Shown in pieces: positions 1 through 7,725 of a stretch of DNA of 7,725 nucleotides. The position numbers and the translations under genes were made by a program. The notes below the pieces were generated by a model that had not been told where the DNA came from, did no database searches, and worked only from the letters and a program-made list of their open reading frames with translations. The stretch lies in IMG/VR virus record IMGVR_UViG_2778261422_000002; one strand, given 5' to 3'. Numbering within the stretch: the stretch's first letter is position 1; each line of letters starts with the position of its first letter. This DNA comes from a virus. Taxonomy: Duplodnaviria > Heunggongvirae > Uroviricota > Caudoviricetes.

Positions 1-18
1 GCCCAGCCCAGCCCAGCC
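1..18. repeat. Pentanucleotide tandem repeat (GCCCA)x3 plus GCC, truncated by the window edge
   Basis: Read directly: gcccagcccagcccagcc at positions 1-18. Its full extent is unknown because the window starts inside it. Confidence 0.6.
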
Positions 19-134
19 AATGTAGCCTTTGATTTACAAATTGTTACATATATTGTTCATCAAATTTCATCATTATCAGAGATTAACAAGCACTGGCAAA
101 GGTTGTCACTCAGTAATATTCCCTAACATTCACT

Positions 135-154
135 ATTATTCACCATTATTCACC
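135..154. repeat. Perfect 10-bp tandem direct repeat ATTATTCACC x2
   Basis: Read directly: attattcacc at 135-144 and again at 145-154, in the AT-rich region upstream of the AlpA-like gene. Possible protein-binding site (operator or recombinase arm-type site). Confidence 0.6.
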
Positions 155-155
155 A

Positions 156-170
156 TTCAAATTATTTGAA
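156..170. promoter_or_regulatory. Near-perfect palindrome TTCAAA-tta-TTTGAA, candidate operator
   Basis: Read directly: ttcaaa (156-161) and tttgaa (165-170) are reverse complements around a 3-nt centre, immediately after the tandem repeat. Function inferred only. Confidence 0.3.
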
Positions 171-2454: not shown

Positions 2455-2552
2455 ACAGCATCAGGAAAAATGAAGAACTATTTTTAAGCAGAGGCTTAAG
2501 CATGCCAGCGTTAATTAATCCAGGCAATGTTCAGTTTTCGGTTATAAATTTC

Positions 2553-2582
2553 TTGCCTCACCAGGAATGCGCGGGATATAGT
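2553..2582 (+). promoter_or_regulatory. Candidate sigma70 promoter: -35 TTGCCT (2553-2558), -10 TATAGT (2577-2582), 18-bp spacer
   Basis: Hexamers read directly; predicted start near 2587-2590. This would drive the short terminated transcript and/or the leader of the replication operon. No experimental support. Confidence 0.3.
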
Positions 2583-2587
2583 TTAAA

Positions 2588-2667
2588 GGTTGCCGCAAAA
2601 TCGGCAGCCGGGCGTAGGAACCCGTGTAATCTAACGGCGACACAACACGCGCCAGGCGTGTTTTTTT
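2588..2667 (+). ncRNA. Putative small terminated RNA of about 80 nt, possible analogue of the P4 CI immunity RNA or an attenuator leader
   Basis: Region between the candidate promoter and the intrinsic terminator. It contains box1 CGTAGGAAC (2613-2621) and box2 ATCTAACGG (2629-2637), both repeated at the RBS of the downstream gene. The overlapping ORF has an implausible translation. Length and position recall the P4 CI RNA; that is an analogy, not demonstrated homology. Confidence 0.3.
2644..2667 (+). terminator. Rho-independent terminator: stem 2644-2650 / 2656-2662, loop GCCAG, U-tract to 2667
   Basis: Read directly: ACACGC (2645-2650) pairs with GCGTGT (2656-2661), then seven consecutive T (2661-2667). 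An alternative outer helix CGACACAA (2638-2645) / TTGTGTCG (2666-2673) is also possible. Confidence 0.5.
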
Positions 2668-2790
2668 GTGTCGTAGCTTTGACTCACCTAAAATTTATGG
2701 TGTGGTGGCTGACTGCATGTTTTTATTTTTTACGCCACATCATCAGAATTATGGTAGTCCAGGCGGGGCAGCTTTCGGGCTGGCCGGTAT

Positions 2791-2880
2791 CCGTTAGAGC
2801 CGGTATTCCTACCCCCGTCTGGGCTACCACCCATGAGCGTAGGAACTCCGGTGGTAGCGTTACCCGCTATCTAACGGAGG
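2791..2880 (+). promoter_or_regulatory. Leader RNA element: an upstream arm complementary to box1 and box2, plus a second box1/box2 copy overlapping the Shine-Dalgarno of the 2889 gene
   Basis: Read directly: arm CCGTTAGA (2791-2798) is the exact complement of TCTAACGG, and TTCCTAC (2806-2812) is the exact complement of GTAGGAA. Downstream copy: CGTAGGAAC at 2838-2846 and ATCTAACGG at 2869-2877, whose final GG are the first two bases of GGAGG (2876-2880), 8 nt before ATG 2889. Interpretation as an RBS-sequestering switch is inference. Confidence 0.3.
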
Positions 2881-2888
2881 TTGCCATT

Positions 2889-3092
2889 ATGGCTACAGTC
2901 CCTGCTTTATCTCACCCTGAATTTACCTTTGTCTTTCTGGCTGTTCGCCGTACAGACCGTGATGCCTGTCCACGTCCTGTGCGTGTAATCGCAGACTGCG
3001 AGCATGCTGCACGCCTTAAACTTGCCACTGAATTTATCCTGAGCTTTGCTGCCCGTATCCCTGTGAAAAGTGCCGGGGAGGTGGTTGCATGA
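2889..3092 (+). CDS. Small hypothetical protein, 67 aa, first gene of the replication operon
   Basis: GGAGG (2876-2880) 8 nt before ATG 2889; stop TGA 3090-3092 overlaps the next start as ATGA. The ORF-track ORF 2502-3092 is this gene plus an upstream in-frame extension that I consider non-coding. Confidence 0.5.
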   Translation: MATVPALSHPEFTFVFLAVRRTDRDACPRPVRVIADCEHAARLKLATEFILSFAARIPVKSAGEVVA

Positions 3093-3325: not shown

Positions 3326-3728
3326 TAATCAAAATTTAAAGGCGCATGCTTTACGAACAGCAGTCTTACGGTACTACATTGCTGATGCATTCATTTCCTT
3401 AATGGAGCGTGTTCATAATGAACCTGTTTATATTGAAGATGGCGAACGAATAGAACTCACCCACGAAAAAGTGGTGAGCAATATTATTTACCATATTGAA
3501 ATGCCGTGGGTGAATGAGTTTGGGGCTGATGCTGGTTGCATACTGGCCGCAGAGAAACTGGAAAAAATGCTTAAACCAGGCTTTATGTCAGAAAATATTC
3601 GCCTGTCAGTTTTTGGTGTCACAGAGATGCGTGAGGTTTACCGGGATATTATTTTCGGTGCACCTGATGGCGAACTACCCGAAGGTTTTGAATTTGTGAA
3701 GCCGGAAGGTCAGGAGGTGCTGCTGTGA
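3318..3728 (+). CDS. Hypothetical protein, 136 aa from ATG 3318, immediately upstream of and coupled to the primase
   Basis: AAGGGAGAG (3302-3310) 7 nt before ATG 3318; the ORF-track start at 3258 lacks an RBS and overlaps the preceding gene. Stop TGA 3726-3728 overlaps primase start GTG 3725 (GTGA). By position it is analogous to the ORF preceding alpha in P4; no sequence identification. Confidence 0.6.
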   Translation: MNNNQNLKAHALRTAVLRYYIADAFISLMERVHNEPVYIEDGERIELTHEKVVSNIIYHIEMPWVNEFGADAGCILAAEKLEKMLKPGFMSENIRLSVFGVTEMREVYRDIIFGAPDGELPEGFEFVKPEGQEVLL

Positions 3729-6022
3729 AAACACAGTCTGTATCCACGATTTCCGGGGCTGCGACTGGGCGCTGGCCTTATATCCTGTCAGCATTAGGTA
3801 TCAAAGTACCGTCCGCAGGACATCATGGGGCTTGCCCTGCCTGTGGTGGCAAAGATCGCTTTCGACTGGACGATAAAGCGGGGCGTGGGACGTGGTTTTG
3901 TAATCAGTGCGGTCATGGCGATGGTCTTGATCTGGTTCGTCTGGTGACAGGAAGAAAGATAAAAGAAGCCGCCGGGATGGTATCTGAGGCGCTTGCATTA
4001 CCAGAAATACAGGAGAAGCCCGCTTTGCCCGCCAGGAAAAAGGCCGCAGGAAAAGAAGCGGGTGCGGAGCGATATACCAGACTCAGACAGCAGTCCTGCA
4101 ATGGTGAGCCGGTCTATCTGACAAACAAGGGCTTACACGGCTATTCACTTCCCTTGCTGTCACAGCCTTTGAATCTGGCCGGAATAACATTTTCCTCCGG
4201 TTCATTACTGCTGCCGTTGACGGATATCTCCGGGAATATTACTGGTGGTCAGCTTATCAATCCTGACGGGGATAAAAGTCTGCTGCCAGGTAGCCAGCTG
4301 TCTGGCGCATTCATTGCCCTGACCGATATACCCGCTGAAACACCTGAACAGGTGATTATCACTGAGGGTTTTGCCACGGCGCTTACCGTCAGTCTGCTGA
4401 CTGAAGGATGGATCGTGGCGGCTGTCGCTGCCACCAATTTACTGAAGGTGACGGAGCAGATCCGAAAACGCTGGCCGGAAACCCGGATCATTCTGGCCGG
4501 AGATAATGATCTGGCTGACGGGAAAGAAAACACCGGGCGTATTCAGGCAGAGAAAGCCGCCAAAGCGGTGGATGGCTGGGTAACGCTCCCTCCGGTACGC
4601 CATAAGGCTGACTGGGATGATTATCGGCAGGAAGTTGGGAAAGAACGGGCGAGAGATGCCTTTCGTGAAGAAATGACGCTGCATGGCAAAGGGCAGACCC
4701 GTTTACCAGAAGGGTTCCGGCTGACAAAAGAATATTTGTGGTACGACAAGCTGGTTAATAAGTCGGATGGCGATACGGAGATACGTAATATCAAAATTTG
4801 CAGTCCGTTGCGGGTGACGGCAATCACCAGTGATGCTGATGGGAGTAATTACGGGCGTTTGCTGGAATGGGAAGATACCAACGGAAACAGCCGTAAATGG
4901 GCAATGCCGATGGAGATGCTGGGTGGCAGCGGGGAAGAGCTGCGCCGCGTTCTGCTGGTTAACGGGCTTTCGTACATCAACATTAACGGCATGGCCAGAG
5001 CATTCCTGATGGAATATATCTCGCTGTGTAAACCGGACAGAAAAGTAACCTGTGTGAATAAAACGGGCTGGCACGGCGGGGTTTACGTTCTCCAGGATGA
5101 AGTGATAGGGCGCGAAGCCCAGTCAGTCATCTTACAAACATCGAGCGTGCAGGGGCGTGATTTTCGTGTCAGCGGCACATCAGCGGACTGGCGTGAAAAT
5201 ATAGGCCGTTACTGCATAAAGAATGCCCGTCTGGCCTTTGCGGTGAGTCTGGCATTTGCTGCCCCCCTTCTGAAACTGGTTGGTATCGGCGGTGGAGGTT
5301 ATCACCTCAAAGGGGAATCAACAGACGGTAAAACCACGACGATGAAAGTGGCTGCATCAGTATGTGGTGGAACAGATTTCTGGCATACGTGGCGGGCGAC
5401 GGGGAATGCCTTAGAAGGAACGGCGAGCCGCCGCAATGATGCCACGCTGATGCTGGATGAAATCCGGGAGGTTGACGGCAGGGAGGCGGGGAATATCGCT
5501 TATATGCTGGCTAACGGGCAGGGCAAAGCCAGAGCCAGAACAGATGGTTCGGTAAGGGAAACCAACCGCTGGAATCTGTTGTTTCTGTCCACCGGGGAAC
5601 TGTCACTGGTGGAACATGCGGCAAGCGCCGGGGAACGTACGTATGCCGGGGTTGAGGTCAGAATGATCCAGATCCCAAGCGATTCGGGCAAATATGGCGT
5701 GTTTGAAGAACTTCATGGCTTCAGTAGCGGGAAAAACCTGGCTGAGCATCTTGAGCAGCACGTAGCGCATTATCATGGCGCACCATTCCGCGACTGGCTG
5801 CATTGCCTGACCGCTGATCTGCCGGAACTGACCAGCCAGGCGAAAGCCTTATTGAAAGAGTACACCCGAAGGCTGACGCCGGAAAATGCCGGGAATCAGG
5901 ATGGCCGGAGGGAGAAGCCTTTCGTGCCGCTCAACGTTGTCTGGCTGCATGGATGGCTGACCGGGGCCATACAGCTAATCAGGAAGATAAAGCGGCACTT
6001 GAACAAGTACGGGACTTCATGA
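3725..6022 (+). CDS. Alpha-type bifunctional primase-helicase (zinc-ribbon, TOPRIM primase, SF3/D5-like P-loop helicase), 765 aa
   Basis: CAGGAGGTG (3711-3719) 5 nt before GTG 3725. Zinc ribbon CPACGG...CNQCGHGDG; TOPRIM motifs ITEGFATA and ILAGDND; Walker A GESTDGKTT; Walker B LMLDEI. This architecture is the hallmark of the P4 alpha / PICI pri-rep family. Size is close to P4 alpha (777 aa, recalled). Confidence 0.9.
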   Translation: MKTQSVSTISGAATGRWPYILSALGIKVPSAGHHGACPACGGKDRFRLDDKAGRGTWFCNQCGHGDGLDLVRLVTGRKIKEAAGMVSEALALPEIQEKPALPARKKAAGKEAGAERYTRLRQQSCNGEPVYLTNKGLHGYSLPLLSQPLNLAGITFSSGSLLLPLTDISGNITGGQLINPDGDKSLLPGSQLSGAFIALTDIPAETPEQVIITEGFATALTVSLLTEGWIVAAVAATNLLKVTEQIRKRWPETRIILAGDNDLADGKENTGRIQAEKAAKAVDGWVTLPPVRHKADWDDYRQEVGKERARDAFREEMTLHGKGQTRLPEGFRLTKEYLWYDKLVNKSDGDTEIRNIKICSPLRVTAITSDADGSNYGRLLEWEDTNGNSRKWAMPMEMLGGSGEELRRVLLVNGLSYININGMARAFLMEYISLCKPDRKVTCVNKTGWHGGVYVLQDEVIGREAQSVILQTSSVQGRDFRVSGTSADWRENIGRYCIKNARLAFAVSLAFAAPLLKLVGIGGGGYHLKGESTDGKTTTMKVAASVCGGTDFWHTWRATGNALEGTASRRNDATLMLDEIREVDGREAGNIAYMLANGQGKARARTDGSVRETNRWNLLFLSTGELSLVEHAASAGERTYAGVEVRMIQIPSDSGKYGVFEELHGFSSGKNLAEHLEQHVAHYHGAPFRDWLHCLTADLPELTSQAKALLKEYTRRLTPENAGNQDGRREKPFVPLNVVWLHGWLTGAIQLIRKIKRHLNKYGTS

Positions 6023-6339
6023 CGCGTAATCAGTTCAGTCGGTTTGCTGACTGGAATGACGACAGGAACCGGCCTGTTTCAATGATGGGATTCAGAAAAG
6101 TCGATAAAGGAGACAACGTAACGGAGCCGGTTGTGACGTTTTACGTTCTCCCGTCTGGCTGGAAGGAGATCTGTAAGGGATTTGATTCGCGTAAGGTGGC
6201 CAGGTTGTGTGTGGACGCGGGCTGGCTGAAACCCGGTGAAGATGGTCGGACGCAAAACAGCATTCGCCTGCCAGAAATAGGACTTAAACGTGTGTACCAG
6301 TTCAATACACAGGTACTGGGAAGCGCCGAACCGGAGTAA
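6019..6339 (+). CDS. 106-aa ORF coupled to the primase stop (ATGA at 6019-6022), or a primase C-terminal domain separated by a -1 frameshift
   Basis: ATG 6019-6021 overlaps primase stop TGA 6020-6022. The same frame is open from 5818 and contains an earlier ATG at 5953 (the ORF-track start) with no clear RBS. The translation (FYVLPSGWKEICKGFDSRKVARLCVDAGWLKPGEDGRTQNSIRLPEIGLKRVY) looks like a small basic DNA-binding domain and ends 27 bp before the iterons. Confidence 0.45.
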   Translation: MTRNQFSRFADWNDDRNRPVSMMGFRKVDKGDNVTEPVVTFYVLPSGWKEICKGFDSRKVARLCVDAGWLKPGEDGRTQNSIRLPEIGLKRVYQFNTQVLGSAEPE

Positions 6340-6365
6340 TTATCGCGTGAGTCTTATTTTTATGA

Positions 6366-6554
6366 GGTAACACTGGTAACAGAGGTAACGCCTGCTACTG
6401 ATGCGGTTCTTCAGTGTTACCAGTCAAAAATACTGACTGGTAACACTGGTAACAAAAAATGGTGTGTTACCACGCGTTACCTCTTGATTATGCTAACTGG
6501 TAACGGATTAAGTCCTTTTAAATCAATAACGTTACACGTGTTACCAGTGTTACA
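6366..6554. repeat. Iteron array: at least 10 copies of GGTAAC/GTTACC in both orientations plus 2 GTTACA variants; probable replication origin
   Basis: Read directly: GGTAAC at 6366, 6375, 6384, 6439, 6448 and 6499; GTTACC at 6416, 6466, 6476 and 6540; GTTACA at 6531 and 6549. Several sit in the longer unit CACTGGTAACA or its complement. P4 ori and crr consist of short iterons (type I TGTTCACC, recalled) bound by the alpha C-terminal domain; here the core is TGTTACC. Confidence 0.6.
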
Positions 6555-6565
6555 CGTTTAGAACA

Positions 6566-6593
6566 AGAGGTAGGGACTCAAATCCCTTCCTCT
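6566..6593 (+). other. Interrupted hairpin AGAGG-t-AGGGA-ctcaaa-TCCCT-t-CCTCT between the iterons and the ogr-like gene
   Basis: Read directly: 6566-6570 pairs with 6589-6593 and 6572-6576 pairs with 6583-6587, with a 6-nt loop. No U-tract follows, so it is unlikely to be a terminator; it may be a protein-binding dyad or RNA structure in the 5' region of the ogr-like gene. Confidence 0.25.
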
Positions 6594-6621
6594 GGCGGGC
6601 AACAGTATAGGGCACAGAACG

Positions 6622-6894
6622 ATGAAGATGATGAGAATGTACTGCCCCACATGTCAGGCAGTAGCGCGGATAGGTAAAACAAACAGGAAACACCCACAAC
6701 TGTATGATGTGTACTGCTATTGCTCTAATGTGGAGTGCGGTCACTCGTTTGTGATGAATGTTGCATTCTCCCATTCCGTTAGTCCAAGCGCGCTGAACGG
6801 GCAGGGGAGGGTTAAAGAGCTAATTGATGCCATTCCACCCGAGGAGCGGGAAAAGGCTTTAAAGTTGCTGCTGGCTGCGCAAAAGAACAGGTAA
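6622..6894 (+). CDS. Ogr/Delta-family zinc-finger transcriptional activator (single-domain, Ogr-like), 90 aa or less
   Basis: Translation contains C-P-T-C ... C-Y-C-S-N-V-E-C-G-H-S-F, matching the Ogr/Delta pattern (P2 Ogr: CPLC ... CQNVNC, recalled). The start is ambiguous among ATG 6622, 6628, 6631 and 6637; Ogr-like proteins begin just before the first Cys pair, so the true start may be 6637. Confidence 0.8.
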   Translation: MKMMRMYCPTCQAVARIGKTNRKHPQLYDVYCYCSNVECGHSFVMNVAFSHSVSPSALNGQGRVKELIDAIPPEEREKALKLLLAAQKNR

Positions 6895-7725
6895 AGTATG
6901 CGTCGGGAATGGCCGATCCGTTCCCGAAACCTGAACACAGGATTTCAGTTAATTAGAATATAAAGTTATTATTTTTCATATGGTTATATTTTTCGCGTTT
7001 TACGAGCCTTCATAAAATCACACACCTAAAATAAATTATCCATTTAATATCATAGTGTTGCGTATTCAGACCACAGACACAACGGACAGTAAAACTGAAA
7101 AAATCTGAATTTTTTTTCATTCTTTTCAGTTCCTGTATCGCAGTACATCCCCAGCACCGGCGCGGACTGGCGGTGTCGTTTGTAAAAAATCCTGACTGAA
7201 AAATTTTAGTGATATGAAAACCGCAGGCGGGTGCGGTGTAGTGCGATTTTTGTCAAAAATGGTTTTCGTGTGTATGCCATAGTTCTATGCACGATTATGA
7301 AAAGAACATTATTTCATAGTGTTGATATCAAAGAAAAATTTTCTGAAAGTAAATGAATTTTCATAGAAATCAATTGGTTGATATGTCTTGGTGACGATAT
7401 TTTTGATGTCTAGAACGTATAGTTTTAGTGACTACTCATAAAACTATTGATTGAATAGTATAAATGTACTTTGAAGTGATTTGTTAAAGTTAATAAATAC
7501 AATGAGTTATAATGAATTCCATGAAAAAAATGAGAGATTGGGTAATGTTGCAAATTGCAAAAAACGCAAGTGATAGACTGTAAAAGTAACGAGTACTTTT
7601 GTTATAGTAGAGAGGTTATGATTGGTTTTCAATGTAATAAATTTTTTGTTAAAGGAATATACAATTGTTTATATTATCTCAAAAAACATTTACTAAATAT
7701 ATTTTAAAGGTGGCTAAATATATTC

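Follow-up and report, generated by a model that had tools for sequence, protein, structure and literature searches.

Known origins of related elements

In staphylococcal SaPIs such as SaPI1 and SaPIbov1, the origin lies directly 3' of the initiator-helicase gene. There the ori consists of 6-12 iterons immediately 3' of rep, to which Rep binds through a winged-helix domain at its C-terminus (PMC9371898). These iterons are short (5-7 bp) and fall into two opposed sets, and the initiator that reads them through its C-terminal winged-helix domain is a self-loading hexameric helicase (PMC9371898); in SaPI5, primase and helicase are fused in one protein (PriRep). Gram-negative PICIs share the pri-rep-ori plan. 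In the E. coli satellite EcCICFT073, two opposite sets of iterons (GGTAGAC/GTCTACC) directly follow pri-rep, and pri-rep-ori drives plasmid replication (Fillol-Salom et al. 2018, PMC6092414). Satellite P4 requires in cis both an ori and a crr cluster, separated by about 4.5 kb, and its type I iteron TGTTCACC is bound by the alpha protein. The crr, directly 3' of the primase gene, packs 10 iterons of either orientation into 300 bp as two 120-bp direct repeats; its tandem copies are 9 bp apart. In the core origins of SV40 and papillomaviruses, inverted initiator-binding repeats are arranged about a dyad with flanking A/T tracts, and two hexamers of a self-loading initiator-helicase assemble there head to head.

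Here we describe a field of repeats in a 7,725-nucleotide stretch of viral DNA (hereafter the window) that resembles the SaPI and PICI origins. The field directly follows the gene for a fused primase-helicase, Pri-Rep, and has 12 iterons in two opposed sets. The helicase belongs to the same Pfam family (DUF927) as the SaPI initiators and matches SaPIbov1 Rep and Cch in sequence, and the C-terminal domain matches SaPIbov1 Rep by predicted fold. The element differs from SaPIs in its host clade (Enterobacterales), in a primase module of the P4-alpha type (Zn-ribbon plus Toprim_3), in a 12-site layout that is conserved across genera and in its remaining genes, which are P4-like (C4/isrK immunity RNA, Ash/Icd, Ogr/Delta and a P2-family capsid gene). 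In our reading, positions 6349-6560 very probably serve a P4-like satellite prophage as its vegetative replication origin and follow the pri-rep-ori plan of SaPIs and PICIs, a function suggested by co-variation and analogy. Origin function was demonstrated experimentally for EcCICFT073, whereas here it is inferred from sequence. Our literature search (DUF927 with iterons; P4-like origins of this kind) returned no description of an origin for this Pri-Rep family.

Twelve sites in a mirror-symmetric array

The hexamer GGTAAC occurs 12 times on both strands of the whole window, compared to 2.71 ± 1.63 copies expected from dinucleotide shuffles, and none of 200 shuffles reached 12. This is the count against shuffled sequence that an earlier note on this DNA had proposed, and it confirms the repeat field described there. 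Ten of the twelve exact GGTAAC/GTTACC hexamers fall within 180 bp (6366-6545); both orientations occur, as that note had stated. The six on the + strand begin at 6366, 6375 and 6384 (iterons 1-3, direct copies of GGTAAC(A) 9 bp apart, 6366-6390), at 6439 and 6448 (iterons 5-6, direct, 6439-6454) and at 6499 (iteron 9, direct, 6499-6505). The four on the - strand lie at 6416 (iteron 4, TGTTACC, inverted, 6415-6421), 6466 and 6476 (iterons 7-8, inverted, 6465-6481) and 6540, the middle one of the inverted iterons 10-12 (6530-6554). Its two neighbours, at 6531-6536 and 6549-6554, are one-mismatch copies (GTTACA) in slots that hold full iterons in relatives. The ten exact and two degenerate sites make twelve, all inside 189 bp (6366-6554); the twelve hexamers in about 190 bp of the earlier note were therefore right as to span, but only ten of them are exact. 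The extended iteron consensus is (A)ctGGTAACA. The longer unit that occurs twice, at 6366 and 6439, is the 16-mer GGTAACACTGGTAACA and not quite the CACTGGTAACACTGGTAAC that had been named; a 15-nt portion of the reverse complement is found a single time (6539-6553).

Spacing that had appeared irregular proved to be ordered. The twelve sites are oriented >>> < >> / << > <<<, six mostly rightward sites followed by six mostly leftward, and the array is mirror-symmetric about ~6460: when the starts and ends of partner sites are added, five of the six pairs sum to 12920 and the sixth to 12919. The dyad centre (6455-6464) is a spacer with a short A-tract, AAAAAATGGT, the length of which varies in some relatives. 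The sites of EcCICFT073 are less regularly placed.

The origin of EcCICFT073 also has a clear A/T-rich block. A long central A/T-rich unwinding region, as described for SaPI and PICI origins and presumed to be their melting site, was not found in the field, where A/T tracts measure only 12-25 bp. The centre (6430-6469) has a GC fraction of 0.33, and the richest conserved A/T tracts are off-centre, at 6349-6364 and 6501-6525. The first of these is a leader, GAGTCTTATTTTTATG (6349-6364, + strand), recognised by alignment; family-wide it is 75-82% A+T and about 80% conserved, and its CTTAT (6353-6357) is invariant in 21 of 21 aligned origins. The leader could be an outer site of melting or have an auxiliary role. 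The second tract overlaps a conserved A/T-rich spacer (6505-6530), a candidate bending or unwinding element, which contains TTTTAAATCAA with an IHF-core-like WATCAA. A possible IHF site is suggested by comparison of TTTTAAATCAA/TAAATCAA with the IHF consensus WATCAANNNNTTR. The A-rich stretch previously proposed as an unwinding element, caaaaatactgac, is real (6425-6436). It makes up the loop and spacer within an inverted repeat that is perfect over 15 nt (6412-6448), and relatives show little conservation of its sequence.

This inverted repeat, together with a DNA fold of -43.7 kcal/mol (z = -5.8 vs shuffles, single strand), could point to a structured nucleic acid, either a cruciform or a folded 3'-UTR/5'-UTR RNA, in which concerted changes among the sites would be compensatory. 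We regard this as extremely unlikely. All twelve sites share one core, even the tandem direct copies that need no mutual pairing. Across the dyad axis 33 of 41 iteron bases are complementary, whereas spacer bases pair at 25 of 65 positions, which is near chance. Class changes among relatives track a protein domain (see below), and no Rfam match was found in the field. Searches for a tRNA or known RNA family in the field were likewise negative, and a terminator scan returned only a weak hairpin (6572-6587) scored on the - strand. A P2/P4 cos site was also considered; no match to GGCGAGGCGGGGAAAGCAC at ≤4 mismatches was found in the 20-kb locus of strain A5, and the field is not cos.

Conservation of the field beside Pri-Rep genes

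The same 12-site layout directly follows the stop codon of homologous ~895-aa primase-helicases at about 45 loci from many genera of the Enterobacterales. The first iteron lies 27 bp past the stop of the full-length 895-aa gene, and in most loci the offsets are near-identical (27, 36, 45, 76, 100, 109, 126, 136, 160, 191, 200 and 209), with no change in orientation pattern; a field typically has 9-13 sites. In three more loci (L037, L044 and L057), which were candidates for lacking the field, an inserted gene intervenes and a similar field of 10-13 core copies follows 1.15 kb downstream. The tie between the iteron field and the adjacent primase gene that the earlier note had proposed is borne out: in about 48 loci the motif is conserved next to homologous primase genes, the opposite of the outcome that was to refute it. 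Within E. coli, the common allele differs from the field of the window at 13 of 261 positions, none inside a GGTAAC hexamer, and two of these changes bring the seventh base to the consensus A.

The suggestion of an "ori or crr-like" element was narrowed by these loci. A crr-like cis enhancer, looping to a separate ori elsewhere in the element, would occupy the position seen here, directly 3' of the primase gene. The field also resembles P4 crr, whose 10 iterons point both ways inside 300 bp, and in both the tandem copies are 9 bp apart. The iteron cores are also alike (GGTGAACA in P4 vs GGTAACA, GGTGTAACA and GGTGGAACA in this family). P4 needs two clusters, whereas each element here has a single one: no second cluster of class iterons was found in the whole 11-kb A5 element or within ±4 kb at 47 other loci, and other 300-bp segments at these loci held at most 0-3 copies. 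A cluster of TGTTCACC was not found in the window either, where the core is TGTTACC. The field is one dyad-symmetric unit, in contrast to the two 120-bp direct repeats of crr, and the initiator is without the helicase and C-terminal domains of P4 alpha (D5_N, DUF5906, Pox_D5). We consider a crr-like role very unlikely, and of the two original terms ori is the one that fits.

A probable initiator of the SaPI type with a P4-type primase

Pri-Rep in strain A5 is a single 895-aa CDS ending at window position 6339. In the window its ORF is truncated (3725-6022, + strand) and encodes a Zn-ribbon primase, Toprim_3 and a DUF927 helicase by Pfam, the DUF927 match having E = 3e-91. In a PDB sequence search the helicase part matched Cch (5dgk) and SaPIbov1 Rep (8tch). 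The replicon is not of the P4 type. In BLASTP of full-length Pri-Rep against P4 alpha, only the primase part aligned (aa 1-317, 39% identity), in keeping with homologous N-terminal primase domains; the helicase and DNA-binding domains of alpha are absent here, unrelated by sequence or profile. The Pri-Rep of EcCICFT073 likewise has a P4-alpha-like SF3 helicase (D5_N/DUF5906/Pox_D5) with no similarity to the protein described here.

Residues 790-895 of the native protein form a C-terminal domain that appears in the window as a 106-aa ORF (6019-6339, + strand). It had been taken for a separate product, but in the family it is the end of the 895-aa primase-helicase, from which a 73-bp deletion has detached it here, and it aligns to positions 778-893 of 895 of the PHROG 1139 "DNA primase" profile. 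An AF2 model of the domain (pLDDT 84) shows two helices followed by a beta-hairpin, which we read as a winged-helix-like fold. The best Foldseek match of this model in the PDB was SaPIbov1 Rep (8tch; prob 1.0, TMq 0.59), followed by the relaxosome accessory protein of plasmid pCW3 (5vfy).

An origin-binding domain of the P4 type was tried as an alternative identity and rejected. BLASTP had joined the two proteins through the primase only, a family profile aligned by hhalign to the C-terminal 154 aa of P4 alpha gave a probability of 0.6%, and Pfam yielded no match for the domain at E ≤ 10; homology is thus unsupported. PDB 1KA8, the solved origin-binding domain of P4 alpha, was absent among the Foldseek matches listed. 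The earlier note had seen a related specificity in the one-base difference between TGTTACC and TGTTCACC. Since the C-terminal domain is unlike that of P4 alpha in sequence and profile, this likeness gives no grounds for deriving the two specificities from a common ancestor.

Iteron class switches together with the C-terminal domain

The iteron core of the family falls into at least seven classes. The window belongs to class A (GGTAACA); GGTGTAACA defines class B and GGTGGAACA class C, and the other cores are GGGTAACA, GGATACA, GGTTACA/GGTGACA, CATGTAGTACA and GTGGGAACA. Within one element the sites have the same class core, or close variants of that core, and elements that share a genome differ in class. 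The idea that different iterons would make satellite replication orthogonal fits both the existence of several specificity classes and this distribution.

When residues were scored column by column for mutual information with iteron class, phylogeny dominated, the N-terminal region scoring as high as the hot region, and sister-pair contrasts were used instead. Within sister pairs picked by hand, residues 845-890 differed at 12.6% of positions in five class-switch pairs but at 0.2% in the ten pairs of unchanged class (Fisher p = 9e-14). For the helicase core the figures were 1.2% and 1.1%, respectively. The N-terminal primase region differed by 8.2% in class-switch pairs and 5.2% in same-class pairs, so that the contrast is not perfectly clean. 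In class-switch pairs the drop in DNA identity is confined to the final ~100 bp of the gene and the ~200 bp that follow. The iterons thus change class in concert with residues 845-890, which suggests cognate specificity between the C-terminal domain and the iterons. Near-isogenic natural pairs of differing class are found in Proteus (L018/L019) and Xenorhabdus (L013/L010).

The same comparison bears on a regulatory reading, in which the field would be an array of operators for Ogr/Delta, AlpA or the Pri-Rep C-terminal domain as autorepressor, controlling ogr/delta or read-through from pri-rep with no part in initiation. The field does fill the entire intergenic region upstream of the gene for the Ogr/Delta-like zinc-finger activator (6622-6894, + strand, Pfam), and iteron-binding initiators commonly autoregulate. 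Across class switches, however, DNA identity is back to 88-99% in ogr/delta, which shows no co-variation with iteron class, while the Pri-Rep C-terminus changes. Twelve dyad-symmetric sites exceed the usual need of an operator, no + strand sigma-70-like promoter was found in 6250-6950, and three loci keep the field despite an insertion that breaks the gene order. We think it very unlikely that the field is only an operator array, although it may have a regulatory side-role alongside that of an origin. A conserved motif found by alignment between the origin and ogr/delta, TCTGGCGGGC (6587-6599, + strand; family consensus TTCTGGCnGGC), may lie outside the origin.

A proposed mechanism of initiation

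On the origin reading, the fused primase-helicase (P4-type Zn-ribbon/Toprim primase, DUF927 helicase and C-terminal winged-helix domain) would recognise the 7-bp GGTAACA through its C-terminal domain. The twelve sites would make up two mirror-image half-origins of six, in which one site per subunit templates two hexamers facing in opposite directions. The helicases would load themselves onto the origin, and melting would occur at the short A/T tracts, in the flanks, at the centre or in the 6505-6530 spacer. After excision, theta replication would proceed in both directions from primers made by the N-terminal primase domain. The double hexamer proposed here has an analogue at the SV40 and papillomavirus origins; the viral initiators belong to another helicase superfamily and have another DNA-binding fold, and SV40 has four pentanucleotides vs the twelve heptamers here. 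Iteron core and recognition residues would evolve together, yielding mutually orthogonal replicons.

A more far-reaching version joins these proposals, and we offer it tentatively, as doubtful when taken whole. In it the 2 x 6 sites would be a hard-wired template for a double hexamer, with a geometry (3-1-2/2-1-3) frozen across the Enterobacterales. The iteron code and a few recognition residues of the C-terminal winged helix (for example R866 vs K866, 846, 861-870 and 878) would have been rewritten repeatedly, giving at least seven orthogonal classes and allowing several satellites to coexist in one cell. The freed 106-aa domain, with its ATGA-coupled start, would act as a stand-alone blocker of incoming satellites of the same class.

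A recent deletion splits Pri-Rep in the window

The 73-bp deletion, identified by alignment of the window with locus L001, has its junction at 5897-5908 and lies between two direct repeats, CAGGtTGGCCGG and CAGGaTGGCCGG, which match imperfectly. Approximately residues 729-753 are lost and the frame is shifted, and in the ORF of the window native residues 1-728 are followed by a frameshifted tail of 37 aa. A 641-nt query spanned 711-714 bp in every E. coli relative listed. Between the window and the intact A5 element the field shows 100% identity, and only 2 of ~7,700 bases in the flanks differ; the deletion is therefore recent. As Pri-Rep is split, the origin of the window is probably inactive unless an element of the same class supplies the initiator in trans.

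A further possibility, compatible with the origin reading, is that the origin of the window is an orphan relic. The field would then have no current function, or its only use would be as a target or titration site, either for the free 106-aa domain or for a satellite of the same class in the same cell. We see the chances of this as evenly balanced. Besides the loss of residues and the frameshift, it is favoured by the report that the C-terminal domain of SaPI Rep is necessary for full ATPase and helicase activity (PMC9371898), and by the deletion allele being present on many public contigs (the exact 765-aa truncated product occurs on at least 24). The titration variant gains from the arrangement at 6019-6022, where the ATG of the 106-aa ORF overlaps the upstream stop (ATGA) and could permit translation of the domain alone; the in-frame ORF from 5953 would give 128 aa. 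A deletion so recent, on the other hand, leaving the field identical to that of A5, gives no basis for an inference on decay or retention. With its initiator truncated and separated from its DNA-binding domain, the copy in the window may be a relic.

Significance for P4-like satellites

The field is in our view very probably an origin of an expected kind, a single SaPI-type origin in a P4-like E. coli satellite. P4-like satellites are present in a large share of Enterobacterales genomes, and P4 ori/crr-alpha is still the reference model for their replication. The branch to which the window belongs is large, its closest protein cluster having more than 2,000 member sequences and its allele group occurring in about 8% of complete E. 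coli genomes, and on our reading it has a SaPI-type initiator and a single origin, unlike the P4 model. Annotation pipelines at present leave the region of the field blank. The comparative data give a map of twelve putative binding sites, the likely recognition residues and near-isogenic pairs, so that specificity swapping, incompatibility and double-hexamer loading are directly testable. The iteron classes might also find use as parts for orthogonal replicons.

The element and its genes

The window covers part of a P4-like E. coli satellite prophage and is 99.9% identical to a locus adjoining a tRNA-Arg gene of strain A5 (locus L001), in which the intact element is integrated. It carries an AlpA gene (267-509), a 286-aa ORF without a family match (between AlpA and the capsid gene, in the passage 527-2414), a P2-family major capsid gene (1410-2414; Pfam E = 3e-66, PHROG 70), an Ash/Icd-like ORF of 196 aa (2502-3092) followed by two small ORFs, the primase-helicase gene (start at 3725), the repeat field and, 3' of the field, an Ogr/Delta zinc-finger gene (6622-6894) with A/T-rich cargo after it. 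The Rfam families isrK (2589-2666) and C4 antisense RNA (2747-2834) both lie inside the Ash/Icd-like ORF and form an RNA immunity region of the P4/P1 type. The right part of the A5 element runs from a 482-aa ORF through the integrase to tRNA-Arg.

A P2-family major capsid gene of its own is unusual for a P4-like element; such elements normally remodel the capsid of the helper. The window shows no homologue of sid or psu, and the P2/P4-type cos sequence GGCGAGGCGGGGAAAGCAC was not found at up to 4 mismatches in the whole 20-kb A5 locus. The A/T-rich stretch (6940-7725) is followed in A5 by the 482-aa ORF (L001 11326-12774), which had no match in Pfam, PHROG or PADLOC and lies between ogr/delta and integrase, a frequent place of defence cargo in P4-like satellites. 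At the left edge of the element the pentanucleotide CCCAG is repeated in tandem about 12 times (L001 3546-3606, window 1-18), and (C)ATTATTCAC(C) is present three times in direct orientation 5' of alpA (L001 3719-3747, window 131-159); possible roles are those of integrase arm sites or operators.

Geometry of the iteron field

The window has 12 copies of GGTAAC compared to 2.7 ± 1.6 in shuffled sequence, and 12 copies were reached in 0 of 200 shuffles, which confirms the excess that an earlier note had proposed to check in this way. Ten of the 12 copies fall in 6366-6545; together with two GTTACA sites (6531 and 6549) they make up the twelve sites within 189 bp, the number given in the earlier note. 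The extended consensus is ctGGTAACA, and tandem iterons are spaced 9-10 bp apart. The sites are ordered >>> < >> << > <<<, with their coordinates mirrored about an axis at ~6460. Around this axis 33 of 41 iteron bases are complementary, compared to only 25 of 65 spacer bases; the symmetry belongs to the arrangement of sites, not to a sequence palindrome.

Conservation and iteron classes

A search profile made from 19 homologues (59-89% identity) retrieved 55 loci, at one genome per species. In the 48 loci with usable downstream sequence, which come from many Enterobacterales genera, one short motif is typically repeated 9-13 times in the 330 bp that follow the stop codon, so the refuting outcome named in the earlier note, a motif not conserved beside related primase genes, did not occur. 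Site offsets from the stop are near-identical in most loci (27, 36, 45, 76, 100, 109, 126, 136, 160, 191, 200 and 209), and most of the 48 share the orientation string >>><>><<><<<. In three more distant loci (50-61% identity) an integrase-like gene is inserted between the primase-helicase and the field, which here consists of 10-13 copies of GTGGGAACA 1.15 kb past the stop (L037 7841-8044, L044 7814-8037, L057 7860-8061). The field was not detected only in L036, a very short contig, and L056, in which the gene is truncated.

The motif falls into classes A (GGTAACA; this window and the majority of loci), Ag (GGGTAACA), B (GGTGTAACA), C (GGTGGAACA), D (GGATACA; L009), E (GGTTACA and GGTGACA, mixed; L008), F (CATGTAGTACA; L033, L034 and L040) and G (GTGGGAACA; L037, L044 and L057). 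The sites of one element match its class core or deviate little from it, and both the layout and several of the spacer motifs are the same from class to class. No second iteron cluster was found elsewhere in any element (the A5 element and the flanks of 47 other loci). Between the window and the common E. coli allele (SA186), 13 of 261 field positions differ; none of these is in a GGTAAC hexamer, and two of the changes turn the seventh base into the consensus A. The class D iteron of Brenneria, TGTATCCAC(A) (L009 6712-6900), is one base from the DnaA box consensus TTATCCACA; the likeness is possibly coincidental.

Three genomes contain two or more family members, and the classes differ in each: Pantoea stewartii (L027, C; L053, B), Pantoea leporis (L042, B; L043, A) and Enterobacter intestinihominis (L004, A; L050, C). 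This agrees with the earlier suggestion that different iterons make replication orthogonal, although three cases, with about 0.3 expected by chance on our estimate from class frequencies, are not statistically meaningful.

The predicted initiator and its split allele

The Pfam domains of the primase-helicase are a Zn-ribbon primase, Toprim_3 and DUF927. Likeness to P4 alpha is confined to residues 1-317 (39% identity), and both P4 alpha and Pri-Rep of the E. coli PICI EcCICFT073 have D5_N/DUF5906/Pox_D5 instead. At the sequence level, matches of the DUF927 part are Cch, the helicase of SCCmec (5dgk), and SaPIbov1 Rep (8tch). The last 128 residues, modelled with AlphaFold2 (pLDDT 84, pTM 0.76), have helices at 834-841 and 846-856 (A5 numbering) and then a beta-hairpin (869-884), an arrangement that we read as a winged-helix-like unit. 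The best PDB match of the model was SaPIbov1 Rep (prob 1.0, TMq 0.59, 113 aligned columns), followed by a relaxosome accessory protein of plasmid pCW3 (5vfy); no match to the C-terminal 154 aa of P4 alpha came from a comparison of profiles.

In A5 the protein is annotated as a single 895-aa CDS ending at window position 6339. The window lacks 73 bp of A5 between imperfect 12-bp direct repeats, CAGGtTGGCCGG and CAGGaTGGCCGG (junction 5897-5908). A 641-nt query covered 711-714 bp in all listed E. coli relatives (a spread sample, 30 of 447 matches); the extra segment is therefore present in all 30. The deletion cuts the protein after residue 728, leaving a 765-aa ORF and a 106-aa ORF (residues 790-895) whose ATG overlaps the new stop (ATGA, 6019-6022). 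What had been taken for a separate product at 6019-6339 is thus the C-terminal domain of the A5 protein; positions 778-893 of PHROG 1139 ('DNA primase', 895 profile positions) match the 128-aa in-frame ORF. Since the exact 765-aa product is present on at least 24 public contigs, and in 110 index blocks of public assemblies, the split allele is circulating and is not an assembly error. The flanks differ from A5 at only 2 of ~7,700 bases, so the deletion is too recent for decay of this copy to be judged.

Co-variation of iterons and protein

Near-identical elements with unlike classes were found in Proteus (L018, B; L019, Ag), Xenorhabdus (L013, B; L010, A), Pectobacterium/Brenneria (L008, E; L009, D; L021, A) and Pantoea (L053, B; L027, C). 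In such class-switch pairs the DNA is 90-100% identical across the gene and again in ogr downstream; identity falls to 60-84% in one stretch only, made up of the final ~100 bp of the gene and the ~200 bp that follow the stop. When five class-switch pairs were compared to ten same-class sister pairs, all picked by hand, residues 845-890 differed at 12.6% and 0.2% of positions, respectively (Fisher p = 9e-14), the helicase core (321-780) at 1.2% and 1.1% (p = 0.63) and the N-terminal region at 8.2% and 5.2% (p = 4e-05). A general pairwise comparison, in which pairs are non-independent, gave a Mann-Whitney p of 7e-13. Positions 846, 850, 861-867, 870 and 878 change recurrently and map, in the model, to the start of the second helix, the loop after it and the beta-hairpin. 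Residue 866 is Arg in classes A, D, E and F and Lys in Ag, B and C.

A probable SaPI/PICI-type origin

The origin of SaPIs lies immediately 3' of rep and contains 6-12 iterons of five or six nucleotides, arranged as opposed sets and read by a winged-helix domain at the C-terminus of Rep, a self-loading hexameric helicase that in SaPI5 is fused to the primase (PMC9371898). Gram-negative PICIs follow the same plan, and pri-rep-ori of EcCICFT073 drives plasmid replication (PMC6092414); GGTAGAC iterons and an A/T-rich block are visible in its sequence. Because layout, classes, co-variation and initiator type fit this plan, we read 6349-6560 as the probable origin of the satellite, to which the satellite's own primase-helicase would bind through its C-terminal domain. 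Twelve sites (2 x 6) in a dyad layout suggest that each subunit of two opposed hexamers might occupy one site. With the helicase truncated and parted from its DNA-binding domain, the origin of the window copy is probably silent unless complemented in trans.

The conserved tracts 6349-6364 and 6505-6530 (TTTTAAATCAA) are candidate melting or auxiliary elements. Directly 5' of iteron 1, CTTAT (6353-6357) is invariant in 21 of 21 aligned origins and is followed by a T-tract; between iterons 9 and 10, TAAATCAA (6517-6524) resembles the IHF core WATCAA. Both non-iteron motifs are kept in all iteron classes. The stretch previously proposed for unwinding (6425-6436) has the A/T bias but is not conserved. 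Most aligned loci also conserve the motif TCTGGCGGGC (6587-6599), whose family consensus is TTCTGGCnGGC. It lies ~35 nt past the last iteron and ~25 nt ahead of the start of ogr/delta, often behind a run of T, and has no match to a sigma-70 promoter.

The element shares with the P4 replicon the outline of a primase-helicase initiator with iterons. The field holds the same position as crr, and the P4 type I iteron GGTGAACA looks like one of the iteron series of the family. Three hallmarks of the P4 system were looked for and are missing: the P4 iteron sequence, helicase and origin-binding domains of the alpha type, and ori paired with crr, in place of which the element has a single cluster. Of the initial description as "ori or crr-like", only the first part is likely to hold. 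The element belongs to the SaPI/PICI-type class, with a grafted P4-type primase module.

The field is a real and functionally coherent feature, and strongly supported as such. Its kind is already known and its mechanism is not new; what is added is a frozen 12-site geometry, several specificity classes and a mapped putative recognition segment.
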